A DNA stretch of 64,000 nucleotides. Source: Candidatus Falkowbacteria bacterium. Lineage in GTDB: Bacteria > Patescibacteriota > Patescibacteriia > Patescibacteriales > UBA12465. Each line of letters begins with the position of its first letter. Within the stretch, counting starts at the first letter, position 1. Where the stretch lies: the NCBI GenBank assembly GCA_026396805.1, contig JAPLVZ010000012.1, positions 8,127 to 72,126 on the forward strand. The letters are read 5' to 3'. This document shows, in pieces, positions 28,849-63,799 of the stretch. The notes beneath the pieces are model-generated. The model ran no database searches. It was not told where the DNA came from and saw only the letters and a program-made list of their open reading frames with translations. A program made the position numbers and the translations under genes.

Positions 28849-29793
28849 TTACTTTTTTAATCTTTTTTGATTATACTTCGCCAATTCTAATCTAACTTTC
28901 TCCTCCATATCGTCACGAGACACGGCGCCGGCGTTATTTAATACTTTTTCCTTATTAAAGATTAGAAACTCGTTCAATTCATTAACCCAATCTCTCATAT
29001 ACATTAATCTTTCTTTAACGCTTTGCAGTTCGGCAAAAGACAAGAATTGCTCTACCAGTAAATTCAGTCTCTTAAGCTCCAATTCTTCCAGATAATTTTT
29101 AGCGATTTCCGCCTGTTCGCGAGTAATAATTTCCCCTGGCCAATTAGTTAAACCGAGGTTTTCCTTAGAGCTGTCTATCCGACTGTTAACTATCTCCGCG
29201 TCCGTCAGTCCGCTGATGGCATAATGGAATTTATTCTGCACCATCGCAAAAAATTTCTGGGCGTAATCGGTTTTAGGGCTATAATCAACGCTAAGGGCAA
29301 AAATGTCTCTGACTTTTTGATAGAAATTAGCCTCCGAGGTTCTTATCTTTCGGATTCGCTCTTTCAATTCCTGAAAGTATGATTTGGCGACCTTACCGCC
29401 GGCTAATCGCTCATCGTCCATCACGAACCACTTGATAATATACTCTTTTAGCTTTTGAGTCGCCCAGATGCGGAATTGCGTGCCGCGGAGGGAATTAATC
29501 CGATATCCGACCGAGATAATCGCGTCTAGGTTATATAAATTTACGGGTCTTTTCACCTCCTTATTTCCTTCTTTTTGAACTATCAAGTATTCCTTGATAG
29601 TTTGGTTTTCGCTAAGTTCAGCCTCATTAAACACATTTTTTAAATGTAGATTAATATTAGCGACGCCGCAATTGAATAACTCTGCCATTTGAACCTGACT
29701 TAACCAAACAGTCTCATTTTCAAGCTTAACTTCCAGTTTCATCTTCCCGTCTTCCGTGCTGTAAATAATGATTTGATTGTTTTTGTCATTCAT
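28849..29793 (-). CDS. RhuM-family protein (full length)
   Basis: 314 aa. The family-typical blocks WLSQVQMAELF, YNLDAIISVGYRINSLRGTQFRIWATQKL and DDERLAGG are present. ggaggcgga (SD) lies upstream of the ATG. Confidence 0.85.
   Translation of the reverse strand: MNDKNNQIIIYSTEDGKMKLEVKLENETVWLSQVQMAELFNCGVANINLHLKNVFNEAELSENQTIKEYLIVQKEGNKEVKRPVNLYNLDAIISVGYRINSLRGTQFRIWATQKLKEYIIKWFVMDDERLAGGKVAKSYFQELKERIRKIRTSEANFYQKVRDIFALSVDYSPKTDYAQKFFAMVQNKFHYAISGLTDAEIVNSRIDSSKENLGLTNWPGEIITREQAEIAKNYLEELELKRLNLLVEQFLSFAELQSVKERLMYMRDWVNELNEFLIFNKEKVLNNAGAVSRDDMEEKVRLELAKYNQKRLKK
29578..29602. repeat. Intragenic hairpin in RhuM copy 1: aactatcaag (5-nt loop) cttgatagtt
   Basis: Perfect 10-bp arms. 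The frame was checked against the ORF, and it encodes TIKEYLIV. Confidence 0.9.
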
Positions 29794-30074: not shown

Positions 30075-30174
30075 AATAGGGGGAAAGGGAACGCTATTAC
30101 CGTCTTTTAGAAACGCTTTTTATCAGTCCGATGACTCCTCTCCACGCTTAGTTTATATTCATCTATTCTCTTTA

Positions 30175-30372
30175 CAAAATGTGTTTAATGAGGCTGAGCT
30201 TAGCGAAAACCGAACTATTCGGAAATTCCGAATAACTGCCGCTGACGGAAAAACATATGATACTAATCTTTATAATCTTGACGTAATTATTTCCGTGGGT
30301 TACCGAGTTAACTCTCTCCGTGGCACTCAATTCCGTATTTAGGCAACCCAGAAGCTAAAAGAATAAATAATA
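30175..30372 (+). pseudogene. RhuM relic (internal fragment with two nonsense codons)
   Basis: Translates QNVFNEAELSENRTIRKFRITAADGKTYDTNLYNLDVIISVGYRVNSLRGTQFRI*ATQKLKE*IIK. TGG became TAG at 30340-30342 and TAT became TAA at 30364-30366, relative to the intact copy. Confidence 0.75.
30216..30234. repeat. Hairpin in the RhuM relic: tattcgga aat tccgaata
   Basis: Perfect 8-bp arms at the same codon position as in the other RhuM copies. It encodes IRKFRI. Confidence 0.85.
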
Positions 30373-30446
30373 AAATTTTATAGAACTTATCCAATTGTCG
30401 CGACACTGTCACGACAATTAAGCTAGTCACATTATGTTGAGTTAAT
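30373..30446 (+). pseudogene. DUF1016/YhcG relic fused in frame to the RhuM relic
   Basis: Reads FYRTYPIVATLSRQLS*SHYVELIEL, compared with FYRAYPIVQTVSAQLSWSHYVELIEL in the intact gene 500 bp downstream. Confidence 0.7.
30392..30420. repeat. Hairpin in the DUF1016 relic: caattgtcgcgaca c tgtcacgacaatta
   Basis: 12 of 14 arm positions pair. Three arm bases differ from the intact copy on each side, and two of the three pairs are restored. Confidence 0.8.
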
Positions 30447-30447
30447 T

Positions 30448-30551: not shown

Positions 30552-30560
30552 TGGTATAAT
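30552..30560 (+). promoter_or_regulatory. Extended -10 element (tggtataat) upstream of the DUF1016 gene
   Basis: TGnTATAAT lies 30 nt upstream of the ATG at 30590. No clear -35 was seen. Confidence 0.35.
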
Positions 30561-30589
30561 AGGGTGATTATTATTAATCATTTAAATTT

Positions 30590-31585
30590 ATGAAAAAAGT
30601 AAAAATCAGCGGAATTAATAAAAGCCTGGCAAATCCAAGCGATTATGGGAATCTATTACATGAGTTAAAAGGAATTATTATTAAAGGACAAAACAAGGCC
30701 TATAAAGCCATAGATAATATTAAAGTCCAGACGTATTGGCAGATAGGCGAACGGATAGTTAGGGAGGAATTAAAAAATAAAGATAGGGCTGAATATGAAA
30801 AGTATTTAATAGAGAATCTGGCCGTAGATCTAAATATTGGCAAACGCGTTTTATATGAAATAGTTAAATTTTATAGAGCTTATCCAATTGTGCAGACAGT
30901 GTCTGCACAATTGAGCTGGTCTCATTATGTTGAGTTAATTGAACTAAGTGATAATAAAGAACGTCAATTTTACGAAAGTAAGATAGTAGCTAACTCCTGG
31001 TCTATCCGGGAACTTAAAGAGCAGATTAAAAATCGTCTCTATCAGAAAACCGATGACAAAGAAAAGGAAAAAATGTTAAAAACCAAGCTTCCGGCTGTAG
31101 TCGACCTGCAAAAAATATTCAAGCCCGATTACGATTTTAATTTTTTAGAAATAGCGCCCAGCCATCAAGAAAAAGAGCTGGAAGATAAAATCATTTCCAA
31201 TATCGAATATTTCCTCAAGGAATTAGGTAATGATTTTATGTTTCTGGGTCGACAAGTACCCATATTAATCGATAATGAGAAGCATTATATCGATTTAGTC
31301 TTGTATCATCGCGGCATTCCTTGTGTTATTCTAGTCGATCTTAAGGCTGATAAACTAGATAGCCGCGATATCGGTCAAATGAATAAATATATTGGCTATT
31401 ATCGCCATAATAGACAGTATGTTTACGAAAACGACACTATTGGCCTTATTATCTGTAAAGAACTGGGTCATGAAGAAGTAATCTATGCTTTAGACGGTTT
31501 AGAGGAAAAGATATTTGTTTCTCTATATAAAACAAAACTGCCAAGCGAAGAGAGAATTAAACGAGCGGTGAGAGGGATAAATTAG
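30590..31585 (+). CDS. DUF1016/YhcG-family PD-(D/E)XK nuclease-like protein
   Basis: 331 aa. The N-terminal block is IVQTVSAQLSWSHYVELI. The C-terminal core is YIDLVLYH...VILVDLKADKL (D...DxK). Confidence 0.8.
   Translation: MKKVKISGINKSLANPSDYGNLLHELKGIIIKGQNKAYKAIDNIKVQTYWQIGERIVREELKNKDRAEYEKYLIENLAVDLNIGKRVLYEIVKFYRAYPIVQTVSAQLSWSHYVELIELSDNKERQFYESKIVANSWSIRELKEQIKNRLYQKTDDKEKEKMLKTKLPAVVDLQKIFKPDYDFNFLEIAPSHQEKELEDKIISNIEYFLKELGNDFMFLGRQVPILIDNEKHYIDLVLYHRGIPCVILVDLKADKLDSRDIGQMNKYIGYYRHNRQYVYENDTIGLIICKELGHEEVIYALDGLEEKIFVSLYKTKLPSEERIKRAVRGIN
30885..30913. repeat. Intragenic hairpin in the DUF1016 gene: caattgtgcagaca g tgtctgcacaattg
   Basis: Perfect 14-bp arms. The frame was checked, and it encodes PIVQTVSAQL. 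Confidence 0.9.
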
Positions 31586-38070: not shown

Positions 38071-38562
38071 ATGGAAAACCTAAATTCACAAATTGTAATA
38101 TATAAAGATCAAAATGGACATATCAAAATCGATGTTCGTTTTGATGGTGATACTGTCTGGCTGACCCAAGATCTTATATCAATTTTATTTAATAAAGCAA
38201 AATCTACTATAAACGAACATATAAAAAATATATATGCTGAAAGTGAGTTGTCAGAGCTAAGTTCAATGAGAAAATTCGGAAATTCCGAATTTTCTACAAA
38301 ACCTACTAATTATTACAACTTAGACCTAATTATCGCTGTTGGCTATCGGGTAAAATCACCCCAAGGCACTATTTTCCGCAAATGGGCCACCGAGAGGCTC
38401 TCGGAATATATTGTTAAGGGTTTTGTATTAGATGATGAGAGGTTAAAAAACCCGGATTTGCCGTTTGATTATTTTGAGGAATTAACCCGTCGCCTTGCGG
38501 ATATTCGCACAGAAATCTTGATGATATTAAATTTTTGTGGCGGGCGGGAACGAAGGTATTAG
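38071..38562 (+). pseudogene. RhuM-family gene truncated after ~147 codons
   Basis: The N-terminal 147 aa are RhuM-like (WLTQDLISILF, YNLDLIIAVGYRVKSPQGTIFRKWATERL, DDERLKNP). Homology stops at ...ADIRTE (~38513), and the remaining reading is out-of-frame radical SAM tail. Confidence 0.75.
38269..38295. repeat. Intragenic hairpin in RhuM copy 3: agaaaattcgga aat tccgaattttct
   Basis: Perfect 12-bp arms. The frame was checked, and it encodes RKFGNSEFS. Confidence 0.9.
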
Positions 38563-47408: not shown

Positions 47409-50400
47409 ATACAAAAAGGCGGCTATTATATTATTATTTTTTTTGATTTCAATCTTGATTATAGCCAAGATTGTTTTTAGTCATGAGCTTATCGGTCGTT
47501 CTTTGGATTTTCCCGTTCCCGCTCCCGCCCAGCTAATAAAAAATATTTATTCTTCCAGTTTTTATTCCTGGCGCGGCATATCTAATGAGGGGGGGAGAAA
47601 TACGTTTTCCGCCACGCTGATTCCAATAAATTTCATTTTATACTTACCAACGCTTTTTAATGCCAGCTCTTGGTTTGTCGGCCGATACCAGATAGTTTTA
47701 ACCTTATTTTTGGGGATGTTTTTTTTCTATATTTTAGCATGGCGTTTATCGAGAGATTATGATATCAAGGAAAATTATAAAATTTTAATTTCCATATTCG
47801 GTGCGTTATTTTTCGTCTTAAATAATTATTTCTTTTGTGAAATAATGTTCGGAAGCAACGTTATGTATTTGACGTTCGCTTTTTTCCCCTTGTTAATTTA
47901 TTCATTGATTTTGTATTTTGAAGATCAAAAGAAAATATTTTTTTTCCTCTCGCTTCTTTCTTTAATTATAATTTCTTCTACTCTACAGCATCTAGTCCTG
48001 GCTTATATAATTTTATTTTTTATCGCCGCTTTTTATAAACAAAAAAAATATTTTTTTATCTTCGGTTTTATCCATTTCTTCTTAAGTCTACATTGGATAT
48101 TGCCTTTAGCGTTTGCTTCTAATGAAGTGCGGACGTTGGAACTGGCCCCTGACTACACGGTTAATCTCCTTGTCTCCTCGCAACATTTTTTAAGCGCCGT
48201 CGTCAATAGTGATTATTTTTGTAGAAGAAATTTATATAATCTGGCCTTAAATAGCGCCTGGCTGTCCGCTGTTTGGGCATTCAATGCCTTTCTTCTGGTA
48301 ATTTTTTCTCTTTTTGCTTTGCTTAAATTGAAGTTTTTTAAAAAGGAACATAAAAAGTTAATAATATTTTCAACCTCATTTTTTTTGGTGGCACTCTTAT
48401 TTACAAAAGGAGGTCGACCACCGCTTGGGGAGATTGTTCTTTATTTATATAATCATATATCATTATTCAACCTCTATCGATCAATCCAGCATTATATCGG
48501 CTTTTATGTCATCGGTGTTTCAATTTTATTTGTTTTTTCCAGTATTTTCTTTGTTTCTAAAAGTAAAAAATGGCTAGTAGTGATTGGCGCGCTGGTTTTA
48601 ATTAACGCTATGCCCTGGTGGTATACTTTAGACATGGGAACCCAAAATATTTATCAGGGGGGGATGCCCAGCTTCTTGGGCCTATATAACCTAACCCCGG
48701 GCAATTGGGAAATGTATAATTTATCTAATAAATTTTTAAATTTTGCTCTTTTACCGATTCCTCCTGGGTATTCAATTAATTTTGAGGCCGTGGGAGCTAA
48801 TAAGTATAGAACGCAAGGCGGGGACGCCGGGCTGGCTTTTGGCAATAAGAAATTCTATGCCGCCGAAAGTAGTTCCATTTTATTAAAAGATACTCTCAAT
48901 AAACTGGAAAATGAGATGTATTCCAACGCCGAATTTTTCAATGACTATAAAAATCTATTTGCTTTATTGAATATTAGGTATTTTGTTTTGCGCGCCGACA
49001 CTAAACCAAATTTTTCCATCAACACCAGATTATTTAATGTTGATAAGGTGCAAGAAGCGATTAGAAACAGTCATATTTTTACCGCCCAAAATACATACGA
49101 TTTCATTACTATTTTAAAGAATGGCGATTTCTTGCCGCAATTTTATGTTCCCAAGATTATAATTCAGACCGATTCTTTTTCCGGATTACTCCCCCTGACG
49201 GACTATAGTCAAGATTTCCTGCCTCGTTTCGCAGTTTTTGATGATTCTATCAATGGTAAAAATTTTCCCTCACAATATATTTCCAACCAGAATCTCAATG
49301 TTGACGCAAGATATTCCACCAATACGAAAAAAATAATTTTTTCAACTGGATTATCGGCGGCGAGTCCTGATAATGGAAATATTAAAAAAGATGTTTACTA
49401 TTTGGCTGGCACCATCGGCGATGTCATGCAAGTCGGGCCCAGCCGGCTTTTTACGATCAAAGAAACATTGAACGAAAGAATGCCAGTGGAATATTCATAT
49501 AGCAACTTAAAATTATATAAAGTTAAAAATTCTCAAAATTTACTTAAAGACGGCTCTTTCGAAAACGGTTTTTGGCGGCCAAAAGTATTTGATTGCACGA
49601 ACGATAAAGAGTATGACCAAACTTTATCAATGAAAATTTCTGATGATGCCAGCGCCGGGAAACACTCTTTAGAATTATCATCGGGTCAACATAGCGCTTG
49701 TACTTCGCGCGTATTTCCCATTAACTTGAAACAAGGGAAATTTTACAAGCTTTCTTTCGATTATAAGAATACCAAAGGCGGACAAGCGCAATATTTTTAT
49801 CAATTATCAGGAAAAAATGGAAATTATCCGTTCGCCGAAACAATTAACGCGAAAAATAATGATTGGAATAAGCTAGAAACGCTGATTGAGGCGAAAGAGA
49901 ATATCAATCAAATTATATTATTCTTTTATTCTCCCCCGGGTGTAGTAGAGAATATTAATGAATATGACAACATTGAGTTGGTGGAATTAACCGAGCCAGA
50001 ACCAAGCAATTTTTTTAACTATTTACAACAAAATAAAGAAATCGAGACCCCCTACTTGGAATTCAAAAAGATCAATCCGACTAAATACCGAGTGGAAATT
50101 CATCAGGCTAAGGGCGATTTCCCCTTGGTTTTTAGCGAGGGTTTTCATAATAGTTGGGCAATATACTTAGGAGACAGAGAAGAAACAAATATTGATAAGA
50201 CGAAGTTAGCCGATTATAAAGAGTTGGACGGCAACGAGGGTGATCAGGCCAGCCCCGCTGAACTTCAGGATTTTATTAATCAAGGATTAATTAGTTCTTT
50301 GGGAAACGGGAAAGAGAAAGAGGCTGCGCACTATAAATGGGGAGGCAATAAAGAGACGCTTGATTATATTGAGAAATACAAAATCGCTTTTATCTCCAAA

Positions 50401-50727
50401 AATTTTCAGGATACGATTCAGAACGATAATTTACCGAATGGACATATTTGGGACACTTGGTTTAAAAACCCTTTGCCGGAAGAAAATCATTTGATGGTTA
50501 ATGGTTATGCAAATAGCTGGGTAGTTGAAACAGAAAAAATTTGTAAAGAGAATCCTGACAAATGTATAAAAAATTCCGACGGTACTTATGACTTTGAACT
50601 GGTAATTGAATTCTGGCCGCAAAGATTGTTCTATCTGGGCCTAGGAATCTCCGGCGCCACCTTGTTGTTATGCCTTGGTTATTTGGTGTATAATTGGGGA
50701 ATTAGAAAGAAAAAATTAAAACAATAA
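47401..50727 (+). CDS. Very large polytopic membrane protein with an extracytoplasmic CBM-like domain and a C-terminal anchor
   Basis: ~1108 aa. The first ~400 aa hold more than 10 TM helices. A large soluble region follows, including LLKDGSFENGFW...HSLELSS (carbohydrate-binding-module-like), then a final TM helix. The ATG at 47401 overlaps the previous stop by 8 nt. Confidence 0.65.
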   Translation: MNKYKKAAIILLFFLISILIIAKIVFSHELIGRSLDFPVPAPAQLIKNIYSSSFYSWRGISNEGGRNTFSATLIPINFILYLPTLFNASSWFVGRYQIVLTLFLGMFFFYILAWRLSRDYDIKENYKILISIFGALFFVLNNYFFCEIMFGSNVMYLTFAFFPLLIYSLILYFEDQKKIFFFLSLLSLIIISSTLQHLVLAYIILFFIAAFYKQKKYFFIFGFIHFFLSLHWILPLAFASNEVRTLELAPDYTVNLLVSSQHFLSAVVNSDYFCRRNLYNLALNSAWLSAVWAFNAFLLVIFSLFALLKLKFFKKEHKKLIIFSTSFFLVALLFTKGGRPPLGEIVLYLYNHISLFNLYRSIQHYIGFYVIGVSILFVFSSIFFVSKSKKWLVVIGALVLINAMPWWYTLDMGTQNIYQGGMPSFLGLYNLTPGNWEMYNLSNKFLNFALLPIPPGYSINFEAVGANKYRTQGGDAGLAFGNKKFYAAESSSILLKDTLNKLENEMYSNAEFFNDYKNLFALLNIRYFVLRADTKPNFSINTRLFNVDKVQEAIRNSHIFTAQNTYDFITILKNGDFLPQFYVPKIIIQTDSFSGLLPLTDYSQDFLPRFAVFDDSINGKNFPSQYISNQNLNVDARYSTNTKKIIFSTGLSAASPDNGNIKKDVYYLAGTIGDVMQVGPSRLFTIKETLNERMPVEYSYSNLKLYKVKNSQNLLKDGSFENGFWRPKVFDCTNDKEYDQTLSMKISDDASAGKHSLELSSGQHSACTSRVFPINLKQGKFYKLSFDYKNTKGGQAQYFYQLSGKNGNYPFAETINAKNNDWNKLETLIEAKENINQIILFFYSPPGVVENINEYDNIELVELTEPEPSNFFNYLQQNKEIETPYLEFKKINPTKYRVEIHQAKGDFPLVFSEGFHNSWAIYLGDREETNIDKTKLADYKELDGNEGDQASPAELQDFINQGLISSLGNGKEKEAAHYKWGGNKETLDYIEKYKIAFISKNFQDTIQNDNLPNGHIWDTWFKNPLPEENHLMVNGYANSWVVETEKICKENPDKCIKNSDGTYDFELVIEFWPQRLFYLGLGISGATLLLCLGYLVYNWGIRKKKLKQ

Positions 50728-50744: not shown

Positions 50745-52061
50745 ATGGATAAACTAAAAAAAGAAAAAATCGTTTACGTCGGCATGAGCGCTGATTTAAT
50801 TCACCCGGGCCATTTAAATGTGATTAATCACGCTAGGAGCCTTGGCGACGTCATTGTCGGATTATTAACTGATAAAGCCATCGCTAGTTATAAACGTCTG
50901 CCATTTTTAACCTATGAACAAAGAAAAGTAATCATGGAGAATTTAAAAGGGGTAATTGAGGTTATTCCTCAGGATACTTTAGATTATGTCCCTAATTTAA
51001 GGAAAATAAAACCGGATTATGTGGTCCATGGCGATGACTGGAAAGAGGGCACGCAGAAAGAAACTAGGCAGAGGGTTATAGAAGCTTTAAAAGAGTGGGG
51101 AGGAGAATTAGTGGAACTGCCGTACACAAAAGGGATTTCTTCAACTATGCTTCATGAAAAAATTCATGAGATTGGGACCACGCCAGAGATCAGGATGAAA
51201 AGATTAAAGAGATTATTAGAAGTAAAACCAATTCTCCGGATAATGGAGGCTCATAATGGCTTGACCGGTCTTATTGTAGATAATCTTAAGATAAAAGATG
51301 AAAAAGGCATTAAAGAATTTGATGGGATGTGGCTAAGCAGTCTGACTGATTCGACCGCTAAGGGTAAGCCCGATATTGAATGCGTTGATTTGACCTCCCG
51401 ATTAAGCACGGTGAACGATATTATGGAAGTGACGACTAAGCCGATAATTTTCGACGGCGATACCGGTGGCATACCAGAACATTTTGTTTTTGGGGTTAAA
51501 ACTATGGAAAGAATGGGAGTTTCGGCTGTTATAATAGAGGATAAGATCGGCTTGAAGAAAAATTCATTGTTTGGGACTGATGTTGAACAAACTCAAGATA
51601 GCATCGATAGTTTTTGTCATAAAATTTCCGTAGGTAAAAAAGCCCAGGTAACCGATGACTTCATGATTATTGCCAGAATTGAGAGCTTGATTTTAAAGAA
51701 GGGTATGGCGGACGCGCTTAAGCGCGCCGAGGCGTATATCGCGGCCGGTGCTGATGGCATAATGATTCATAGCCGGGAAAAGGACCCCACAGAAGTTTTG
51801 GAATTTTGTCGGGAATATAAAAAATTTAAAAAAATAGTCCCGCTCGTGGCCGTTCCGTCAAGTTATAATCAGATTTATGAAAAGGAATTAATGGAAGCCG
51901 GAGTGAACATCGTAATTTACGCGAATCATTTATTGCGTAGCGCTTATCCGGCGATGGTAAATACGGCTAAATCAATCTTATTAAATGAAAGAGCGCATGA
52001 ATGCGAGAGCGCCTGCATGTCTATAAAGGAGATATTAACTTTAATTCCGGGAGGACAATAA
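50745..52061 (+). CDS. Bifunctional cytidylyltransferase / phosphoenolpyruvate phosphomutase (Fom1-like architecture)
   Basis: The N-terminal ~135 aa carry the HxGH-type cytidylyltransferase motifs ([14 protein letters not shown] and TKGISSTML). The C-terminal ~295 aa are PepM-like ([16 protein letters not shown], and the PepM-specific [10 protein letters not shown], i.e. EDKx5NS). Confidence 0.85.
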
Positions 52062-52062
52062 T

Positions 52063-53190
52063 ATGATTAACTGTGAAAAATTCTATCAATATTTATTAGA
52101 AAAAAATATAAATTTTTTTACCGGCGTTCCGGACTCTCTTTTGAAAGATTTTTGTTCTTATATTATGGATAACGCCGGACAGAACCATGTAATTAGCGCT
52201 AATGAAGGGAATGCCGTGGCCTTAGCGGCCGGACATTATTTAGCTTCCGGGAATATTGGCTTAGTCTATATGCAAAATTCCGGCATTGGGAATGCTATTA
52301 ATCCTTTAGCATCGCTCGTTGACCCGGAGGTATATAGTATACCCGTCTTAATGATAGTCGGTTGGCGCGGCGAGCCTAATGTCAAGGATGAACCCCAGCA
52401 TATCAAGCAGGGGAAAGTTACTACCGGTCTATTCGATGCCTTATCTATTCCTTATGATATTTTACCCGCCTCTTTAGATGAAGCCAAAGTTTGTTTAGAT
52501 AAGGCTTGTAATTATATGCGTGAGAACAGTTCCCCCTACGTTATTATCATCAAAAAAGATACCTTTGAAAAATATTCTTTACAGAATAAAATAAAAAATA
52601 ATTATCCGGTATCCAGAGAAGAGGCGATTAAACGTATCGTAGATACCTTATCGCCAGAAGATATTATAGTTTCTACGACCGGCAAGGCCTCGCGTGAACT
52701 CTTTGAATACCGGGATTATTTACATCAAGGGCATGATAAAGATTTTTTGACTGTCGGCTCAATGGGCCATTCTTCCCAAGTAGCGCTGGGCATCGCTCTG
52801 GAAAAGAAGAACAGAAAAGTTTATTGTTTGGATGGTGACGGAGCGGCGATTATGCATATGGGCGCCTGGGCGATTATCGGCTCAAAAGCGCCGGAAAATT
52901 TCCGTCATATAATCTTGAATAATGGCTGTCATGAATCAGTCGGCGGCCAGCCGACGGCGGGATTTAGCATTAATATGCAGATGTTGGCCCAGGCTTGCGG
53001 TTATAAAAATATTTATCTGGCCGAGACTTTAGAAGAAATTGAAAGTAAAATTAATTTACTAAAAAATAGCGTCGGGCCGTCTTTACTGGAGATAAGAATA
53101 AACAGCTCATCTCGAGAAAATTTAGGCCGACCCAACATTAGCCCGGTCGATAATAAAAAAGATTTTATAAAATTTATTCGAAATAGTTAA
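52063..53190 (+). CDS. Phosphonopyruvate decarboxylase (ThDP-dependent)
   Basis: 375 aa. The N-terminus FFTGVPDSLLKDF and the ThDP motif GDGAAIMHMG...NN are present. It starts 1 nt after the PepM fusion stop. Confidence 0.82.
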   Translation: MINCEKFYQYLLEKNINFFTGVPDSLLKDFCSYIMDNAGQNHVISANEGNAVALAAGHYLASGNIGLVYMQNSGIGNAINPLASLVDPEVYSIPVLMIVGWRGEPNVKDEPQHIKQGKVTTGLFDALSIPYDILPASLDEAKVCLDKACNYMRENSSPYVIIIKKDTFEKYSLQNKIKNNYPVSREEAIKRIVDTLSPEDIIVSTTGKASRELFEYRDYLHQGHDKDFLTVGSMGHSSQVALGIALEKKNRKVYCLDGDGAAIMHMGAWAIIGSKAPENFRHIILNNGCHESVGGQPTAGFSINMQMLAQACGYKNIYLAETLEEIESKINLLKNSVGPSLLEIRINSSSRENLGRPNISPVDNKKDFIKFIRNS

Positions 53191-53200
53191 GTAAGAAAAA

Positions 53201-54337
53201 ATGCCACAGAAAAATTATATTGGCATAGGCGCAATCAAAAATTTGGCCGGATATCTTCGCCAGAATAAGGTGAAGAAAGTTTTTTTAGTATCGGGAAAGA
53301 AATCTTATAAGCTTTGCGGCGCGAAAAAGATATTGGATCCGATTTTAAAAAAATATTCCGTTTTAAACTTTACTGATTTTTCGTCCAATCCGAAACTATT
53401 GGCTATTGAAAAAGGCGCGAAGTTGTTTAAAAAATATGATCCGGACTTGGTTATCGCTATCGGAGGCGGCAGCGCGATCGATATGGCTAAGGCCATAAAT
53501 ATTTTAGCCGTTCAAGACGGCAATCCGCGAGATTATGTTTTAAAAAAGAAAGAAATAACAAAATCAGGAAAAAAATTGATTGCCGTCCCCACTACGGCTG
53601 GTACGGGAAGTGAGGCAACCTGTTTCGCCGTGGTTTATATTAATAAAGTTAAATATTCTTTAAAGCATAAATTTATATTGCCAACTTGTTTTATTATCGA
53701 TCCGCGATTTACCTTTAATTTAAATCAAAAAATCACGGCCGAGACGGGCGCGGACGCCCTAGCGCAAGCAATCGAATCATATTGGAGCGTTAATTCTACG
53801 GCTGAGTCAAAAAAATATGCGGCGCGAGCGATCAGGATAATTTTAAAAAATTTATATAAAGTCGTGAATAATCCGGATCAGAAATCAAGACTGAAAATGA
53901 GCCGAGCGGCCAATCTTTCCGGAAGAGCCATAAATATAACAGAAACAACGGCTTGTCACGCTATTTCTTATCCAATTACTTCTTATTTCGGCATAGCGCA
54001 CGGGCAGGCCGTGGTTATGACTTTAAGTAGTCTTTTAAATTATAATAATTTAGTGTCTCAGGCGGATGTTTTAGACAAGCGTGGAGCGCTTTATGTTAAG
54101 AGGGTTATAAAAGATATAATTAAATTATTGGGTGCTCATAATTGTCAAAATGCTCAAGAAAAAATTGAAAGTATTTTAAAGGGAGTCGGTTTAGCTACTC
54201 GATTTCGTGAATTAAATATTTTTAGAGAAGATTTAAAAATAATTTTTAAAAATAGTTTTAATCCTGAGAGGATGAAAAATAACCCACGTTTAGTGACTAA
54301 AAAAGAATTATGGAAAATGTTATTAAATTTATTATAA
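53201..54337 (+). CDS. Group III iron-containing alcohol dehydrogenase (candidate phosphonoacetaldehyde reductase)
   Basis: 378 aa with GGGSAIDMAKA and metal-binding His motifs. The assignment rests on its position directly after PepM and Ppd. Confidence 0.75.
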   Translation: MPQKNYIGIGAIKNLAGYLRQNKVKKVFLVSGKKSYKLCGAKKILDPILKKYSVLNFTDFSSNPKLLAIEKGAKLFKKYDPDLVIAIGGGSAIDMAKAINILAVQDGNPRDYVLKKKEITKSGKKLIAVPTTAGTGSEATCFAVVYINKVKYSLKHKFILPTCFIIDPRFTFNLNQKITAETGADALAQAIESYWSVNSTAESKKYAARAIRIILKNLYKVVNNPDQKSRLKMSRAANLSGRAINITETTACHAISYPITSYFGIAHGQAVVMTLSSLLNYNNLVSQADVLDKRGALYVKRVIKDIIKLLGAHNCQNAQEKIESILKGVGLATRFRELNIFREDLKIIFKNSFNPERMKNNPRLVTKKELWKMLLNLL

Positions 54338-54502
54338 ATTAGAACTGGGGGTGGGATTTTGTGAGGAGGAAGAAAGATTTGATAGAGGTTGAGGAGGTTA
54401 GTGTTATTGAAGGTTAGGGGGTGGCGCTATGTGTCCGCTTGAGGGTCTGAGATGGTGCTGGGCGATTGTTTACGCAAGATAGGACTAAATTACATCAAAT
54501 TT

Positions 54503-55243
54503 ATGACTAATACTTACAAAATTAAAGATAAACTATTAATAATTGGCGACGGTCGTTATAGTAATGAAGAAATCATGGCATTATACAGAGAAATAGAAAA
54601 TCACATTTTTCGTTCGGAATTTAATGAAGATTTAAATGCTTGTCTTGATGATTGCTTACATAAGATTAAAGCAACCTGGTATCATCTTTCTACTATTAAA
54701 CAAGAGGTTGAAGAAATAATGACGCACCCGAAACATTATTTGCAGCAACAAGTTTTTCAGTCTTATCCAAAAATAGAATTTCAAGATAATCGTCTTATTT
54801 ATGAGATAGAAGCTTTTTTATTTCAGGTAAAAAGTAATTTGGATATTATCGTACAAGTCCTAACTTTCTTTTATCCTAATTTAAAAAGTGAAAATGCCGA
54901 TAGGCCTAATGGTTTTGATGGTAAAAAGAGGCTAGCTGGTTACAAAACAATTGAAAAGTTAACGACAGCTGGAGAGGCTAGATTAGCTGATTATTTTAAA
55001 GGGGAGGTAAGTGATTGGATTCAAGAAATGGTTGATTTGCGTAATACTGTCACTCACAAAACTCAACTGGAAAACTACCAGTCATTTTTAATAACGGAAA
55101 TGTTATCTAACGAGCTTGAAATAAAAACACCACTAATGCCTTCGGGGCAAAAAGTGGAAGTTTATTGTCAATTAGTTTTTGATAAATTATTAAATTTTTA
55201 TCGGACAGTGTTTGTAGATATTATTGGCGAATATAAAAAATAG
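54503..55243 (+). CDS. Hypothetical protein with a HEPN-like Rx4H motif
   Basis: ~246 aa, predicted mostly helical. MVDLRNTVTHK contains R-N-x3-H, as in Abi/HEPN families. The ATG at 54503 is preferred. Confidence 0.4.
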   Translation: MTNTYKIKDKLLIIGDGRYSNEEIMALYREIENHIFRSEFNEDLNACLDDCLHKIKATWYHLSTIKQEVEEIMTHPKHYLQQQVFQSYPKIEFQDNRLIYEIEAFLFQVKSNLDIIVQVLTFFYPNLKSENADRPNGFDGKKRLAGYKTIEKLTTAGEARLADYFKGEVSDWIQEMVDLRNTVTHKTQLENYQSFLITEMLSNELEIKTPLMPSGQKVEVYCQLVFDKLLNFYRTVFVDIIGEYKK

Positions 55244-55395
55244 TAAATTTAGAAGAATAAAGTGAAAAATTATAAAATAGAAGAAATAGAAACAGATCCT
55301 TCGCTCCGCTCAACTCGCCTCGCTTCGCTGGCGAAGCGGGAATGGCAAAGAAAGATTTTATAAAAACTTTATAAATATTTTATTTAATATTAGCC

Positions 55396-55424
55396 TTGAT
55401 AATGATTATTAAACCTGCTATAAT
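55396..55424 (+). promoter_or_regulatory. Sigma-70-type promoter (TTGATA, 17-nt spacer, TATAAT) for the Bro-N-like genes
   Basis: -35 at 55396-55401 and -10 at 55419-55424. The upstream 30 nt is 29/30 identical to the module at 62206-62235. Confidence 0.6.
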
Positions 55425-55453
55425 CAGGTGATAATAATTAATTATCTAAATTT

Positions 55454-56161
55454 ATGGCTAAAAATGACAAACAAAATGAAATTAATAAAATAGTCTTGTT
55501 TAAAGGGCAAAAGATTAGGCGAATTATTTTTAATGATGAATGGTGGTTTTCTGTTGTTGATGTTTGCGGAGTGTTGGTGGAAAGTACAAACGCTAGAGAT
55601 TATTGGTATAGAGTAAAAAGTAGAGTTGAAGATGAAGAAAAACTTCAACTGTCGACAATTTGTCGACAGTTGAAGTTAGAGTCGCCTGACGGCAAAATGC
55701 GTGAAACCGATTGCGCAAATACCGAAGGATTATTCCGTATTATTCAGTCTATCCCTTCGCCGAAAGCTGAACCGTTTAAACGTTGGTTGGCTAAGGTCGG
55801 CTATGAGCGAGTTCAAGAAATTCAAGATCCAGAATTAGCGACTAAAAGAACTAGAGAACTCTATAAGCTAAAGGGTTATAGCGATTCCTGGATTGAAAAG
55901 CGGCTGCGCGGTATCGCTATTCGCGAAGAATTAACTGATGAATGGAAAAATAGAGGGGCGAGAGAAAAAAAGGATTATGAAATTTTAACGGCGGAAATAT
56001 CAAAAGCGACTTTTGGATTAACCCCGGTTCAGTACAAAAAAGTTAAGAGTCTGGGCAAAGAGAATTTGCGCGATCATATGGAAGATATTGAAAAACAATC
56101 TGACGCTAAAGTTGCCAGTTCGAATAATTTTTTAGGGCGGAAAAATCACCAGCTAGAATGA
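55454..56161 (+). CDS. Bro-N / DinD-like protein (copy A, with an internal deletion near the C-terminus)
   Basis: 235 aa with WWFSVVDVCGVL, DGKMRETDCANTEGLFRIIQSIPSPKAEPFKRWLAKVG. Relative to copy B it lacks ~45 aa between NLRDHM and the C-terminal tail. Confidence 0.8.
   Translation: MAKNDKQNEINKIVLFKGQKIRRIIFNDEWWFSVVDVCGVLVESTNARDYWYRVKSRVEDEEKLQLSTICRQLKLESPDGKMRETDCANTEGLFRIIQSIPSPKAEPFKRWLAKVGYERVQEIQDPELATKRTRELYKLKGYSDSWIEKRLRGIAIREELTDEWKNRGAREKKDYEILTAEISKATFGLTPVQYKKVKSLGKENLRDHMEDIEKQSDAKVASSNNFLGRKNHQLE
55641..55677. repeat. Intragenic hairpin in Bro-N-like copy A: aacttcaactgtcgacaa t ttgtcgacagttgaagtt
   Basis: Perfect 18-bp arms. The frame was checked, and it encodes KLQLSTICRQLKL. 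Confidence 0.92.
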
Positions 56162-56203
56162 AGAGGAAATTGTTTAAGCGATAATAATTAATTATCTGAA
56201 TTT

Positions 56204-57046
56204 ATGGCTAAAAATTTTAACAAAAACGTCGATAAGAACATCGCCTTATTTGGAAATGATCCGGTCCGTAGAATATGGGATGAAAAGGAAGAACGATGGT
56301 ATTTTAGCGTCGTAGACGTGGTACGAGTTCTCGCGGATAGTTCTCGGCCCGACGCTTACTGGGTCGCGATGAAAGCTCGGGTAAAAAGTGATGATGGAAT
56401 TCAGTTATCTACAATTTGTAGGCAACTGAAGCTGGAGGCTTCTGATGGTAAAAGATATCAGACTGATTGCGCTAATACCGAAGGCGTACTTCGTATCATT
56501 CAATCAATCCCTTCCCCTAAAGCCGAACCCTTTAAGCGCTGGCTGGCTAAGGTCGGACAGGAACGGATACGGGAGATAAACGATCCGGAGATTGCTTTAA
56601 ACCGTTCTCGGGAGCTTTGGCAAAAGCATGGCCGAAGCGAGTCGTGGATTCAACGAAGGATGATGGGGCAAGAAACTAGAAATAAACTGACTGATTATTG
56701 GAGCGAACACGATGTTAAAAAGGGTGATGAGTTTGCGATTCTGACTAATATTATCCACGAAGAATGGAGTGATTTATCGGTGAAAAAGCATAAAGATTTG
56801 AAAGGTTTGAAAACGCAGAATTTACGCGACCACATGAGCGAAGAAGAATTAATTTTCTCCGCCTTAGCCGAAATGTCTACTAGAAAAATCGCGGAAACGG
56901 AACAGACTGCCGGTCTGGAGGCTAATAAAATTCCTGCCAAGAAAGGCGGCAAAATCGCGAAAGATGCGAGAACTGCTTTAGAAGAGAAAACCGGCCAAAG
57001 CGTGATTACCGGTCGGAACTTTTTACCGAAGTTAAAAAATAAATAA
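56204..57046 (+). CDS. Bro-N / DinD-like protein (copy B)
   Basis: 280 aa with the same motif set as copy A. The 5' leader ataataattaattatctgaatttatg is nearly identical to that of copy A. Confidence 0.8.
   Translation: MAKNFNKNVDKNIALFGNDPVRRIWDEKEERWYFSVVDVVRVLADSSRPDAYWVAMKARVKSDDGIQLSTICRQLKLEASDGKRYQTDCANTEGVLRIIQSIPSPKAEPFKRWLAKVGQERIREINDPEIALNRSRELWQKHGRSESWIQRRMMGQETRNKLTDYWSEHDVKKGDEFAILTNIIHEEWSDLSVKKHKDLKGLKTQNLRDHMSEEELIFSALAEMSTRKIAETEQTAGLEANKIPAKKGGKIAKDARTALEEKTGQSVITGRNFLPKLKNK
56400..56430. repeat. Intragenic hairpin in Bro-N-like copy B: ttcagttatctacaa t ttgtaggcaactgaa
   Basis: Of 15 arm positions, 13 are Watson-Crick, one is G-U and one is a mismatch. It sits at the same codon position as in copy A, with different outer arm sequence. 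Confidence 0.85.
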
Positions 57047-57076
57047 AGAAAATAATTTATAAATTAATCACGCCGA

Positions 57077-58756
57077 ATGAACTTATTAAATAAACTAAAA
57101 CTTAATCGTCTTTCGGCCTCTTTCTGGGGCTATGTTTTGGTTATTTTAGCGATCGTTTTGCCTTGGTTTTTAAGATCCGGCTATCTATTCTTGACCGATA
57201 ATGTCTGGGGGCCGATTATTAAGCTTGATTGGACCGGCTCCTGGTTCTTCCTTAAGCTTTTGCTTTCGGGCTTATCTTTTATTTTTCCGGTTGATTTTTT
57301 GGAAAAGATTTTTATCAGCGGCGTTTTAGTTCTAATTTTACTGGGCGGCCGGATGTTCGTTAAAGCGGTAACTTCGACGGTATCCCCGGGTCTGGTTTTT
57401 GTTCTGAGTTTATTCGCCCTGTTCAATCCTTTTGTTTACGATCGAGCGCTTTACGGTCAATCCGGCGTTCTTATCGCTTACGGCTTTTTATTATTTGCTG
57501 TCGCCTATTTATTAAGAACTTGGCGAACTTTAGATTTTAAGAATCTGCGTCTCGCCGCGGTTTTTAGCGCTTTAGTTTTAATGTTTGCCGTCCATTTTAT
57601 TTTTTTTCTTACCCCTTTTTGTTTATTATTTTTAATCGGGATGTTTTTAAGGCGCCGGGAAATAAAAGCGGCGGGCGGGCTAAAGAAATTTTGGCTGGCT
57701 TTATTATTTTCTATTGTTATTGTTTTAACTATTAATGCCAATTGGCTGGTTGCTTTAACGCTCAAAGCTTCGCCTTTAGCTAATTTTGTCCAGCAGGGGA
57801 TTACCAGCCAGGATTTAGTCGCTTTTCAGACCGCGGGTAAGAATGGATTGGAGACCTTTACTAACGTTTTATTAATGTCCGGTTTCTGGGGTAAGGATCA
57901 ATATCGTTATTTCGATCTGACGACCGCGCCCGGTTGGCAAAGAAGTTTTATTCTCTTAACCCCGCTTATTTTTTATGGCGTTTACTTAAGTTTTAGAAAA
58001 CGTAGTCGCGGCGAAAAAATTTTAAGCGCCGGTTTGTTTCTTATTTTCGCTTTAGCGGTTTTTTTGGCCGTCGGAATTAAGTCGCCGGTTACGCGCGGTC
58101 TGACTATGTTCCTTTATGATCATCTGCCCTTATATAAAGGTCTGCGGGAACCGCAGAAATGGGTCGCGGTTATTATTCCGGTTTATCTTTTTTACCTGAC
58201 GCTCGGAGTGGCGCGTTTAGCGAAAGTTAAGATTATTCTTAATCATAAAATTTTAAGTGGTATATTTTTAGCCGCCGTGATTATCATGCAGGCGCCGTCC
58301 TTACTTTGGGGATTTAATCGCCAGGCTAAAGCCACGCCGTATCCTAGCGATTGGTACGAAGCCGATAATTTTTTAATTGACCGTACACCGCAGTCTTATA
58401 ACTGTGATGATAAGATTATTTTTTTACCTTGGCACGCATATATGAGTTTTAACTGGGTCGGGAAGATTATCGCTAATCCGGCCGCGACTTTTTTTTCCTG
58501 TCCGATTTTGAGCGGTACGAATATGGAATGGGGCGGAATTTATGATAATAGTCAAGATCCCGACGGTGCGGTAATCGCCACTTGGCTGGCGCTTAAAGGG
58601 CAGGGCGGCTTGCCGGCTATTTCCGGGAACGCGCCGCGCTATATTATTCTGGCGAAAGAAGTGGATTTTAATTCTTATTTATGGTTAAATAAGATTTCCT
58701 ATTTAAGCTTAATCAAAGAAACGCCGACTCTCTTAATTTATGAAGTTAAATTTTAG
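57077..58756 (+). CDS. Polytopic membrane protein (possible GT-C-type glycosyltransferase)
   Basis: 559 aa. About 12 TM helices are followed by a soluble C-terminal domain. No catalytic motif was verified. Confidence 0.5.
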   Translation: MNLLNKLKLNRLSASFWGYVLVILAIVLPWFLRSGYLFLTDNVWGPIIKLDWTGSWFFLKLLLSGLSFIFPVDFLEKIFISGVLVLILLGGRMFVKAVTSTVSPGLVFVLSLFALFNPFVYDRALYGQSGVLIAYGFLLFAVAYLLRTWRTLDFKNLRLAAVFSALVLMFAVHFIFFLTPFCLLFLIGMFLRRREIKAAGGLKKFWLALLFSIVIVLTINANWLVALTLKASPLANFVQQGITSQDLVAFQTAGKNGLETFTNVLLMSGFWGKDQYRYFDLTTAPGWQRSFILLTPLIFYGVYLSFRKRSRGEKILSAGLFLIFALAVFLAVGIKSPVTRGLTMFLYDHLPLYKGLREPQKWVAVIIPVYLFYLTLGVARLAKVKIILNHKILSGIFLAAVIIMQAPSLLWGFNRQAKATPYPSDWYEADNFLIDRTPQSYNCDDKIIFLPWHAYMSFNWVGKIIANPAATFFSCPILSGTNMEWGGIYDNSQDPDGAVIATWLALKGQGGLPAISGNAPRYIILAKEVDFNSYLWLNKISYLSLIKETPTLLIYEVKF

Positions 58757-62256: not shown

Positions 62257-62262
62257 GTGGGG

Positions 62263-62796
62263 ATGAAAAATAATTTTAAAAAAAATTTTGCTTATATTGA
62301 CGGCGCCAATCTTCATAAAGGAATAAAAGATTTTGGTTGGCGGCTGGATTATAAGCGTTTTCGCGTTTGGCTGAAAGAAAAATACTCAGTTGAATGCGCC
62401 TATTTATTTATCGGATTAATCCCAAAATATAAAGATTTGTATGCTTTTTTGCAAAAATCCGGGTTTACTCTTATTTTTAAAGAAACAACTTATGATGGTA
62501 ATGGCAGGGTGAAAGGAAATTGTGATGCCGATTTGGTTTTAGCGGCGGTACGTGATACTTTTGAAAATTCTTATTTTAAATCAGTTTTAGTTTCTAGCGA
62601 TGGCGATTACGCGGGTTTAGTGAAATTTCTTTTAGAAAAGAATAAGTTTAAAATTTTACTTTCACCGGATGAACATTGTTCGGTTCTATTAAAACGTACC
62701 AACGCCCCGATTTCTTATTTGAGTGATAAGAGAAATATCTTAGAAAATATTGATCGTCTTTATAAAAAAGCCCCCGATGCGGACAAAACCGCATAA
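62263..62796 (+). CDS. NYN (LabA-like PIN-fold) domain protein, copy 1
   Basis: FAYIDGANLHKG, NCDADLVL and VLVSSDGDYAGLV motifs. The ATG at 62263 is preferred to the GTG at 62257. Confidence 0.8.
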   Translation: MKNNFKKNFAYIDGANLHKGIKDFGWRLDYKRFRVWLKEKYSVECAYLFIGLIPKYKDLYAFLQKSGFTLIFKETTYDGNGRVKGNCDADLVLAAVRDTFENSYFKSVLVSSDGDYAGLVKFLLEKNKFKILLSPDEHCSVLLKRTNAPISYLSDKRNILENIDRLYKKAPDADKTA

Positions 62797-62898: not shown

Positions 62899-62927
62899 TC
62901 AGTTGTCCGAAAAAACCGGACAACTGA
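62899..62927. repeat. Intergenic hairpin G (Bro-type): tcagttgtccg aaaaaac cggacaactga
   Basis: Perfect 11-bp arms. It is related to hairpin D (tgtccga...tcggaca), but the outer arm bases differ and still pair. It abuts the leader of the RhuM fragment. Confidence 0.85.
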
Positions 62928-62949
62928 AATTATTATTAATTTTAAATTT

Positions 62950-63231
62950 ATGGACAAGAAAAACAATCAAATCATTATTTACAGTACGGAAGATGGGAAG
63001 ATGAAGCTTGAGGTTAAGCTTGAAAATGAGACCGTTTGGTTAAGTCAAAAACAGATGGCGGAGCTGTTTGACTGTAGTATCCGGAACATCAGCTTACATT
63101 TACAAAATGTGTTTAATGAGGCTGAACTTAGCGAAAATTCAGTTATGAAGGATTACTTCATAACTGCCTCTGACAAAAAGAATTACCTGATTAAATACTA
63201 CAATTTAGACGCGATTATCTCGGTCGGCTAA
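62950..63231 (+). pseudogene. RhuM N-terminal fragment (93 codons)
   Basis: The first ~62 aa are nearly identical to the intact copy at 28849-29793. It stops at ...YNLDAIISVG*, whereas the intact copy continues YRINS. Confidence 0.75.
63140..63166. repeat. Intragenic hairpin in RhuM copy 4: cagttatgaag gatta cttcataactg
   Basis: Perfect 11-bp arms. The frame was checked, and it encodes SVMKDYFITA. Confidence 0.9.
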
Positions 63232-63265: not shown

Positions 63266-63799
63266 ATGATTAATAATAAGCAAATAAAAAATTTGGCGTT
63301 CATAGATGGACAAAATTTATACATGGGTACCGCCAAAAGACAAGTTGATCCATGGAGAATAGATCTTGATCGTTTTCGCGTATATTTGGAGAAAAAATAT
63401 AATACCAGTAAAGCTTATTATTTTTTAGGATATGTCCAAAGAATGAATCAAGAATTATATGAGGAAATTCAAAACGCTGGTTTTGTTTTAGTATTTCGCG
63501 AGCATAATCCGGCGATGATTGGAAAGAAAAAGGGGAATGTAGACTCGGATATTATTTTTCAGATAATGAAAAAAATGTATAAAAAAGAAGATTTTGACAA
63601 AATTATTCTTGTCTCCGGAGATGGTGACTATAAATTGCTGGTCGATTTTTTAATTGAAGAAAACAGATTTAAAAAGATTTTATTTCCTGATAGAAGTAAA
63701 AGATCATCCCTTTACAAAAGTTTGTCAAATAAATTTTTTGCTTATTTGGACGATACCGATATTAAAAATAAGATAAAAAAAAAGAAAAGGGTGCCTTAG
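63266..63799 (+). CDS. NYN (LabA-like PIN-fold) domain protein, copy 2
   Basis: LAFIDGQNLYMG, NVDSDIIF and ILVSGDGDYKLLV motifs. It is a paralogue of 62263-62796. Confidence 0.8.
   Translation: MINNKQIKNLAFIDGQNLYMGTAKRQVDPWRIDLDRFRVYLEKKYNTSKAYYFLGYVQRMNQELYEEIQNAGFVLVFREHNPAMIGKKKGNVDSDIIFQIMKKMYKKEDFDKIILVSGDGDYKLLVDFLIEENRFKKILFPDRSKRSSLYKSLSNKFFAYLDDTDIKNKIKKKKRVP

Follow-up and report, generated by a model that had tools for sequence, protein, structure and literature searches.

A covarying palindrome at one in-frame position of Bro-N/DinD-like genes and of three other bacterial gene families, a candidate hotspot of recombination

Integron attC sites, which delimit exchangeable gene cassettes, are recognized by structure and not by sequence, as hairpins of single-stranded DNA whose arms covary. 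They are intergenic, imperfect and 57-141 nt long, carry extrahelical bases and R and L boxes (RYYYAAC…GTTRRRY), and need the integrase IntI. Rickettsia palindromic elements (RPEs) are selfish DNA inserted in frame into open reading frames (ORFs), have homologues with empty sites and decay with time. At the pilE G-quadruplex (G4) of Neisseria and the HO site on the MAT Y/Z border of yeast, a site or structure at the edge drives the replacement of a variable segment. Coding palindromes have been described in the mitochondria of Nematomorpha, for which maintenance of the arms by conversion or template switching was proposed (PMC6649704); they are the only other coding palindromes that we found in the literature, and nothing relevant was found on RhuM, ORF6N, Bro-N, KilA-N or DUF1016 in combination with palindrome, hairpin or cruciform. 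Template switching at quasipalindromes homogenizes the arms by one-step, multi-base changes of the 'compensatory' kind (PMC8794818; PMC7202029), and stems have been documented to arise and persist through it (PMC8794818). A cruciform-forming palindrome is also known at exsBA of Vibrio parahaemolyticus, where it affects expression and interacts with HlyU, a winged helix-turn-helix (wHTH) protein (PMC10325908). Here we analyze a palindrome that forms part of the coding sequence of two tandem Bro-N/DinD-like genes in a stretch of 64,000 nucleotides from a Candidatus Falkowbacteria bacterium (contig JAPLVZ010000012.1, positions 8,127 to 72,126), hereafter called the window, and that recurs at a fixed position in genes of the RhuM, DUF1016/YhcG and ORF6N families.

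The element resembles each of these systems in part. It would work most like an attC site, or like a recombination-initiating structure beside a variable cassette, but it lies within an ORF, measures 25-37 nt, is often perfect, lacks the extrahelical bases and the R and L boxes, and has no linked integrase, no integrase ORF being present near the sites in the ORF maps of the window or in the flanks of the loci examined. The GTT/AAC positions of attC are not conserved either, since an agttg…caact variant lacks them. Like RPEs it is a DNA palindrome translated within proteins, but it differs from them in being ancestral to each family, kept perfect and used to encode conserved residues. As at pilE and MAT, a defined site borders a variable segment on one edge and conserved homology follows, although here the arrangement is known from sequence, and D, C, E and F (see below), the partial copies that the window contains, are too short on their 5' side to be obvious donors. 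Like the nematomorph repeats, it consists of perfect or near-perfect inverted repeats in coding genes, both arms of which encode functional, conserved protein, with mismatches essentially absent and no excess of imperfect intermediates. The nematomorph repeats, however, reach up to 284 bp and are scattered, being gained and lost between species of one organelle lineage, a dynamic that is not seen here: arms of 8-18 bp occupy a fixed position in four bacterial families across phyla, show deep covariation and are linked to mosaic boundaries and gene junctions. Template switching accounts for the missing intermediates and the strand symmetry reported below, but it is a mutational mechanism and not an element, and it leaves the fixed position in four families unexplained. 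Finally, the exsBA site is intergenic and concerns a single locus, in-frame coding and family-wide covariation not having been reported there.

The clearest case in the window, copy A (55641-55677, plus strand), is aacttcaactgtcgacaa-t-ttgtcgacagttgaagtt, with 18 of 18 Watson-Crick pairs around a 1-nt centre, and is read in frame as KLQLSTICRQLKL within a Bro-N/DinD-like gene of 235 aa (gene A, 55454..56161, plus strand). Its tandem paralogue of 280 aa (gene B, 56204..57046, plus strand) has the same leader and carries copy B (56400-56430, plus strand), in which other codons encode the same peptide, QLSTICRQL. Copy B has 13 Watson-Crick pairs out of 15, plus one G·T and one A·C, so that the 14 paired positions counted by an earlier reading of this DNA made from the sequence alone (hereafter the sequence-only reading) stand if the G·T wobble is included. 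Both genes match the Pfam domain Bro-N (PF02498) at 64.1 and 51.5 bits, the cut-off being 25.6, while the DinD-like resemblance of the C-terminal part is taken from the source annotation only. As a single strand, copy A folds at -20.3 kcal/mol as DNA (z -6.6) and at -28.1 kcal/mol as RNA (z -5.6); copy B folds much more weakly, near background, and stem strength varies widely between copies.

A chance origin of the palindromes in the window is excluded. With a minimum arm length of 10 and a maximum loop of 5, there are 8 perfect palindromes, compared with 0.86 in dinucleotide shuffles, and with a minimum arm length of 12 there are 4, compared with 0.06; the longest arm across 100 such shuffles of the window was 13, that of copy A being 18. 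When terminators and AT-only sequences are set aside, all palindromes with arms of at least 10 fall within Bro-N, RhuM or DUF1016 genes or their remnants and none within the approximately 50 other genes of the window, so that core genes do not have an equal density of them. The sequence ACAATTTGT, which had been proposed as the unifying core of these hairpins, does occur five times in the window against 0.58 expected. It does not unify them, for the core varies inside the Bro-N family (cccattttggg, gtcacaaaatgtgac) as well as between families.

We then compared the motif DNA of 78 distinct Bro-N sequences from many phyla, mostly other than that of the window, namely 76 sequences from 80 loci in other genomes together with the two of the window. 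Counted from the centre, pairs 2-7 and 11-12 are Watson-Crick in 97-100% of the 78 sequences, and mismatches cluster at pairs 8-10 and 13. Covariation was computed on a 51-column alignment (A1), with shuffles and slid controls: 91% of the cells are paired, versus 78.5% in the shuffles and 30-44% in the slid controls, double-change cells amount to 130 versus 39.5 in the shuffles, and compensatory changes occur at 8 of 13 pairs, as expected of a generic structured RNA element. Some double swaps are synonymous, as in caaCTG…CAGttg versus cagTTG…CAActg or tcG-aca…tgt-Cga versus tcT-aca…tgt-Aga, and others change two amino acids together, giving FTICK (ttt/aaa), VTFCH (gtg/cac), FPFWE (ttccca/tgggaa), VTKCD and SVTNCHR. 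The third position of the Thr codon, itself synonymous, is A in 76 of the 78 sequences, as pairing to the T of TGT requires. These changes bear out the proposal of the sequence-only reading that the hairpins form a covarying family, the peptide varying only in ways that preserve the stem. The expectation that the T-[IN]-C-centred motif is palindrome-encoded in general holds for the 78 distinct sequences. Bro-N copies of the cultured Haliscomenobacter (H. hydrossis DSM 1100, on pHALHY02), Arcobacter (A. cloacae LMG 26153, on pACLO), Parabacteroides and Chondrinema have the hairpin as well, and a single exception was found, an intact homologue from Chlorohelix. The state of the outer stem is linked to the allele that lies downstream, DGK-MR or DGK-KY, and pair 11 is never mismatched. 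A first parsimony count gave 7-8 independent compensatory events per pair, which is an overestimate because the hairpin segment recombines; recounting on the segment's own tree gives 3-5 events for the inner pairs.

The palindrome terminates a variable segment formed by a helix and a flexible linker, codons ~40-75 of gene A (55571..55678, plus strand). There are two Bro-N classes, LSTICRQ and VVTFCHG, and their differences are confined to these codons, outside which identity between classes equals that within classes. When vectors of pairwise nucleotide identity are compared, the variable segment correlates with the hairpin (r=0.56), whereas either of them correlates with the N- and C-terminal parts at r=0.03-0.14; the N-terminal part and the two C-terminal parts intercorrelate (r=0.51-0.62), and codons 47-82 correlate with the gene body at about zero. 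Traced on trees of the N or C parts, the type 1/type 2 state switches 18-20 times, as often as at random, and on the segment tree it does so once. Pairs of loci such as L011, from a member of the Candidate Phyla Radiation (CPR), and L078, from a gammaproteobacterium, show identities of 0.8-0.9 on both sides and of 0.36-0.42 inside the segment, nucleotide similarity returning at the 3' end of the hairpin. Thus a segment of about 35-40 codons, with the hairpin at its 3' side, has a history decoupled from that of the rest of the Bro-N gene. A sequence search for a solved structure of the Bro-N protein returned none; in the structure model the hairpin peptide corresponds to a linker modelled with low confidence, residues 60-72 of copy B, and to the start of strand 73-78, a linker of this kind being a permissive location for the element.

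All of the hairpins that the sequence-only reading had listed, A to G, are present where it placed them, and several of them lie at gene junctions. E (29944-29968, plus strand, 12-bp arms) is a hairpin-only remnant of Bro-N type, QTVTICHGF, whose closest intact relative is in Haliscomenobacter, and homology is lost within about 6 nt of its 3' end. F (28825-28841, 8-bp arms), also of Bro-N type, adjoins the stop codon of the RhuM gene on the minus strand, just beyond it; the hairpin was correctly located, and it belongs to a Bro-N fragment on the minus strand, reading ETVTNCNQ. G (62899-62927, plus strand, 11-bp arms, 7-nt loop), previously assigned to the Bro-N family, is a remnant of RhuM type (SVVRKNRTT), the homology of which ends at the 3' end of the hairpin, a further RhuM copy beginning directly after it with its leader and ATG (62950). 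C (29982-30075, plus strand) is a Bro-N mid-fragment composed of a hairpin with 7-bp arms (29986-30002, plus strand; gtcacaaaatgtgac, VTKCD), KLEMLAQDGKMRET and an intrinsic terminator. D (28680-28790, plus strand), joined to the 3' end of the UXS gene, is similarly built of a hairpin with 7-bp arms (28683-28701, plus strand; tgtccga aaaaa tcggaca, SEKIG), a 14-residue stretch and an intrinsic terminator. (C and D are direct repeats, about 80% identical, on either side of an inverted RhuM gene, and may represent remnants, small RNAs or recombination substrates.)

Taken together with other loci, homology to the parent family ends 0-6 nt after the hairpin at four sites, namely G, E, L039 (2930-2954) and L075 (1537-1559), the last two hairpins lying 43 nt ahead of a Bro-N ATG and about 30 nt ahead of a Bro-N start, respectively. 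Conversely, homology begins a few codons ahead of the hairpin at D, C, L038 (12 nt past the upstream stop) and L136. The latter locus is syntenic with the window on both sides, and in it, in the place of Bro-N A, the same leader drives a DUF1016 gene, which is followed by a 27-nt tandem duplication and then by a Bro-N remnant starting at agtgaggtcgtgaca / agtgaggtcgtgacattttgtcac; here DUF1016 has replaced the 5' part of Bro-N, to a few codons before the hairpin. All significant Bro-N, RhuM and DUF1016 remnants in the window cover the hairpin site. Junctions lie at the hairpin or a few codons from it in at least 8 cases, subject to ascertainment bias, in addition to the mosaic boundary at its 3' end, and the association of rearrangement junctions with hairpins that had been proposed from this DNA is therefore found at G, E, D and C as well as at other loci. 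From these comparisons, the Bro-N site is a hot spot of gene turnover within a polysaccharide-biosynthesis cluster. (In comparing L136 with the window we used 50049-50640, 55347-55456 and 57076-58215; L136 is devoid of the window's four genes at 50745-55243.)

The reading that we favour, with a probability of roughly 0.4, takes together the palindrome, its near-universality, its covariation, the lack of strand asymmetry (see below), the segment's decoupled history and the junctions. It holds that the element is a hairpin or cruciform at the level of DNA, kept complementary by selection and/or template switching, which acts as a hotspot of recombination and rearrangement. Folding of the palindrome would occur while its region is exposed as a single strand (in replication, repair or DNA transfer) or is under negative supercoiling, and the fold would stall or break DNA synthesis. 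Repair would then proceed via short-range template switching or gene conversion, by which a change in one arm would be copied to the other so that the palindrome stays perfect. The base of the hairpin would become a preferred end-point for the exchange of the adjacent variable segment of ~35-40 codons, and would also favour truncation or replacement of these genes in their hot spots. The advantage could lie, for instance, in diversifying the specificity segment of DNA-binding proteins of defence islands. A recombination hotspot had already been suggested for this DNA, and the decoupled history of the hairpin-containing segment supports it. It is tempting to go further and to propose, rather tentatively, that the four families carry in their own frame a self-encoded, structure-defined recombination signal, a hairpin of single-stranded or supercoiled DNA, kept perfect by template switching, that would trigger cassette-like replacement of the specificity segment beside it and of whole genes.

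Several points weigh against a DNA-level hotspot. An intact Chlorohelix homologue keeps the residues without the pairing, and copy B in the window is weak. Recombination inflates the counts of 'independent' compensatory events, the true number of which is uncertain. Remnants were partly found via their hairpins, which introduces an ascertainment bias, and the block that follows the hairpin is the best-conserved stretch of the protein, which biases tblastn. These genes lack a consistently linked recombinase or nuclease, and the extrusion or breakage of palindromes of 25-37 nt in these hosts is something we infer. A stem of -28 kcal/mol in mRNA would affect the transcript too. Two old alleles undergoing homologous recombination in their conserved flanks could, moreover, yield the decoupled segment with no role for the hairpin, and the left boundary of the segment, near codon 40, has none.

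If the stem functioned in mRNA, as an intragenic stem-loop controlling elongation, co-translational folding at a domain boundary, or decay and processing (e.g. by RNase III) for which the DNA is the template, pairs of the G·U kind should be tolerated far more than A·C, as they are in real RNA helices. Stem mismatches on the sense strand comprise 27 G·T versus 25-26 A·C cells, and mismatch events on the tree are 20 A·C, 14 G·T and 10 of other kinds; the excess of G·U expected for structured RNA on the sense strand is not found, and since G·T is no commoner than A·C nothing points specifically to mRNA structure. Double transversions, from G-C to T-A at pair 5 and from T-A to G-C at pair 7, occur about as often as double transitions, intermediates between paired states are almost absent, and perfect hairpins survive in decayed, non-coding remnants. 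This pattern fits symmetric pairing at the level of DNA and/or one-step copying of arms by replication template switching. The mRNA explanation, which we consider unlikely, does have in its favour that the covarying stem is in every case part of the sense strand of an ORF that is expressed, that its predicted RNA fold is very stable in copy A, that it is located at a linker between sub-domains and that inner and outer helices are kept despite the mismatches at pairs 8-10, as around an RNA internal loop. It is at odds with the many copies that are perfect with a 1-nt centre, with the retention of hairpins in both kinds of gene fragment, and with a stem strength that varies to near background in copy B. 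The covariance models of Rfam 15 gave no match in the window at the gathering score, and matches of chance level at permissive thresholds (E of at least 0.6, far below gathering). No run of T follows hairpins A, B, E, F and G, as it would in intrinsic terminators, and in D and C the true terminators sit 45 nt downstream of the hairpin. A stimulator of -1 frameshifting was also considered and rejected, because the codons upstream vary freely and a slippery heptamer (X XXY YYZ) is not conserved among homologues.

The sequence-only reading dealt with a single gene family, a scope that proved too narrow, for other families in the window bear the same kind of element and their hairpins were missing from its list. 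RhuM genes and remnants contain in-frame hairpins at one homologous position: 29578-29602 (minus strand, QTIKEYLIVQ) in the intact gene 28849..29793, 30216-30234 (plus strand, TIRKFRIT) in remnant 30172..30381, 38269-38295 (plus strand, 13-bp arms) in the truncated gene 38071..38562, and 63140-63166 (plus strand, 11-bp arms, SVMKDYFITA) in remnant 62950..63231. The DUF1016/YhcG gene 30590..31585 has one at 30885-30913 (plus strand, 14-bp arms, IVQTVSAQL), and upstream of this intact gene a DUF1016 remnant (30367-30513, ending with …YPIVATLSRQLS and a stop) retains another at 30393-30419 (plus strand, 12 of 13 positions paired). Distinct RhuM sequences drawn from 55 relatives on viral contigs and from cultured bacteria of four kinds (Aliarcobacter, Aeromonas, Proteus and Parabacteroides) have it as well, and of about 40 RhuM sequences all except for one weak copy keep the hairpin. 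Examples are AGTGGTTGTTTCCA-aaa-TGGAAACAACCACT, encoding VVVSKMETTT, AGTGGTTGTTGCAAA-a-TTTGCAACAACCACT, encoding VVVAKFATTT, and TTCAACTATTAGGAA-a-TTCCTAATAGTTCAA in the Aliarcobacter rhuM located between hsdM and hsdS (A. cryaerophilus, pCNAC48). The DNA of DUF1016 and ORF6N was drawn from 6 contigs and 6 plasmid records, scans of viral contigs for these two families having returned nothing. In DUF1016 the hairpin directly precedes the SW[ST]H motif in 8/8 sequences (one by eye), e.g. CAATTGTGCAGACA-g-TGTCTGCACAATTG, CAATTGTCGCATC-gct-GATGCGACAATTG and ATTCTCGTGACA-c-TGTCACGAGAAT, and peptide variation across 120 homologues obeys the reverse-complement rule too; in ORF6N it lies at the 'LRSQxVTS' motif, again in 8/8, and an ORF6N gene on a Legionella pneumophila plasmid is one cultured carrier.

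As read from the sequences, the centre of symmetry falls on codon position 2 in Bro-N, 3 in RhuM and 1 in ORF6N and DUF1016. Such differing phases imply that the palindromes are not one inherited stretch of nucleotides; they probably arose or were rebuilt separately in each family, each at one fixed position, and a recurrent origin of this kind implies a shared cause. RhuM and Bro-N align weakly across the site, and in both the hairpin comes just before a 'DGK'-type turn. (The stretch 38245-38406 aligns with residues 67-124 of Bro-N B at 22% identity, with an E of about 1, covering the hairpin site and the next 'DGK' beta-hairpin; this weak similarity is consistent with a remote common fold, which is not established.)

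These observations bear on a further explanation, in which the coding palindrome would have no function and would perpetuate itself: past a length threshold, template switching would outpace erosion by point mutation, and the palindrome would persist and drift as one piece wherever the protein tolerates it. The same argument has been made for the nematomorph palindromes (PMC6649704), and it draws on template switching as a process that maintains stems (PMC8794818). The scarcity of intermediates, the parity of double transversions and double transitions, the missing strand asymmetry and the perfect arms in dead remnants are all as this explanation predicts, as are the position at a linker of low confidence (pLDDT) and the existence of an intact gene without the hairpin. 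We nevertheless regard it as improbable as a full account, given that across phyla the position is fixed in almost every member of four families, unlike the scattered nematomorph repeats, that the codon phases imply several independent origins at an equivalent place, and that, with terminators and AT-only sequences aside, the other genes of the window are free of palindromes with arms of at least 10.

All four families have N-terminal domains of DNA-binding type, as would suit a palindromic or cruciform operator bound by the encoded protein or a partner, with autoregulation by roadblock or cruciform attenuation; copies ahead of start codons would then be promoter-proximal operators. Hairpin remnants indeed occur 20-45 nt ahead of start codons at G, L039, L075 and L151, the upstream and in-gene palindromes of L151 share arm sequence, and there is the precedent of a bacterial wHTH regulator that acts on a cruciform (PMC10325908). 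However, an upstream copy is found at only about 2 of the 80 Bro-N loci, and it is a RhuM-type hairpin that precedes the Bro-N genes. Recognition of a specific sequence by a dimer is made unlikely by the synonymous arm swaps, together with the complete sequence differences between close relatives, and since those swaps leave the protein unchanged a sequence-specific operator was rejected; overall, a regulatory role of this type seems very doubtful. The L151 locus, on Butyrivibrio plasmid pCY186, has palindromes at 55-88 and 307-338, the upstream one having 16-bp arms, ending just before the ORF6N start codon and reusing the in-gene arm CATCGAGATGCCAA. Further perfect palindromes, with arms of 12-19 bp and a loop of 0-1 nt, lie outside the four families in the flanks of Bro-N loci, at L013 4604-4636, L067 1190-1227, L011 5143-5167, L005 2123-2152 and L012 361-386; one of these five is within a CFA-synthase-like ORF, and another within an open frame of 385 codons, at its N-terminal residues 42-52.

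An in-frame mobile insertion, comparable to RPEs or to miniature inverted-repeat transposable elements (MITEs) and akin to the 'mobile structural module' of the sequence-only reading, is effectively refuted even though the palindromes are in frame and E, F and G are isolated intergenic copies, because none of the 78 Bro-N, ~40 RhuM, 8 DUF1016 and 8 ORF6N sequences has an empty site, homologues all have the element at the same codons, with conserved protein encoded by either arm, the isolated copies bring flanking codons of their parent gene families, and terminal repeats and target duplications are absent.

Other features of the window concern the surroundings of these genes. A promoter and leader, tataat…ggtgataataattaattatctaaatttATG, is common to Bro-N A and B, DUF1016 and RhuM copies here and in the close relatives L030 and L136 (window 55347-55456, 56172-56206, 30540-30592 and 62928-62952; L136 1362-1476; L030 1-28), and spans four unrelated gene families of cassette type in this genome and its close relatives. 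It is missing from most other Bro-N loci and is thus lineage-specific and not part of the element, a distribution for which we rejected the leader as a component of a mobile unit. In the leader of the minus-strand RhuM gene (29800-29835) a GC-rich insert of about 30 nt, ccgcgtggccgccaataagcggaggcggagc, separates the AT-rich part from the ATG, and a similar GC-rich, hairpin-prone stretch is found upstream of Bro-N A, at 55290-55340. A weak HEPN(Apea)-like ORF (54452-55243) precedes Bro-N A, and two genes with an NYN domain (LabA-like, 62257-62796 and 63266-63799) lie on either side of a RhuM remnant; the NYN and HEPN-like neighbours may be of toxin or defence type.

The Bro-N protein has more than 8000 relatives, the best 120 of which are 73-88% identical and annotated as coming from CPR and Nitrospirae, and the 80 genome loci, at 64-79% protein identity, add Gammaproteobacteria, Rickettsiales, Planctomycetota, Omnitrophota and others, with Nitrospirota also among the hosts. 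Nucleotide identity between loci reaches 80-90% in blocks, as in the comparison of a CPR bacterium with a gammaproteobacterium, a pattern which implies that a single gene has undergone pervasive recent horizontal transfer, its vehicle not being evident. Only three relatives of this subfamily are present in the phage collection, and it is therefore not a typical phage antirepressor. Compared with the family of 275-280 aa, gene A has lost about 45 internal codons near the C-terminus by a deletion that keeps the frame; one public contig (P0001) encodes an identical 235-aa protein.

Covariation-conserved nucleic-acid structures are rare within the protein-coding sequences of bacteria, and one at a fixed position in four common and functionally obscure families is apparently undescribed. 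Its consequence for the proteins is that in motifs such as LSTICRQL, RSQFVTS, VVSKMETT and IVQTVSAQL one half is dictated by the reverse complement of the other. The four families are typical inhabitants of type I restriction-modification (R-M) loci and defence islands, and the genes of RhuM and DUF1016 are enriched beside type I R-M loci (PMC9881135). Should the element act in RNA, it would represent a new class of intragenic regulator. Should it act in DNA, it would offer a mechanism for the shuffling of segments, for the mutual replacement of these genes at hot spots and for identities of 70-88% across phyla, and if it is in addition a self-encoded recombination signal, it would constitute an unrecognized, enzyme-independent (or host-repair-dependent) mechanism for the diversification and mobility of single genes.

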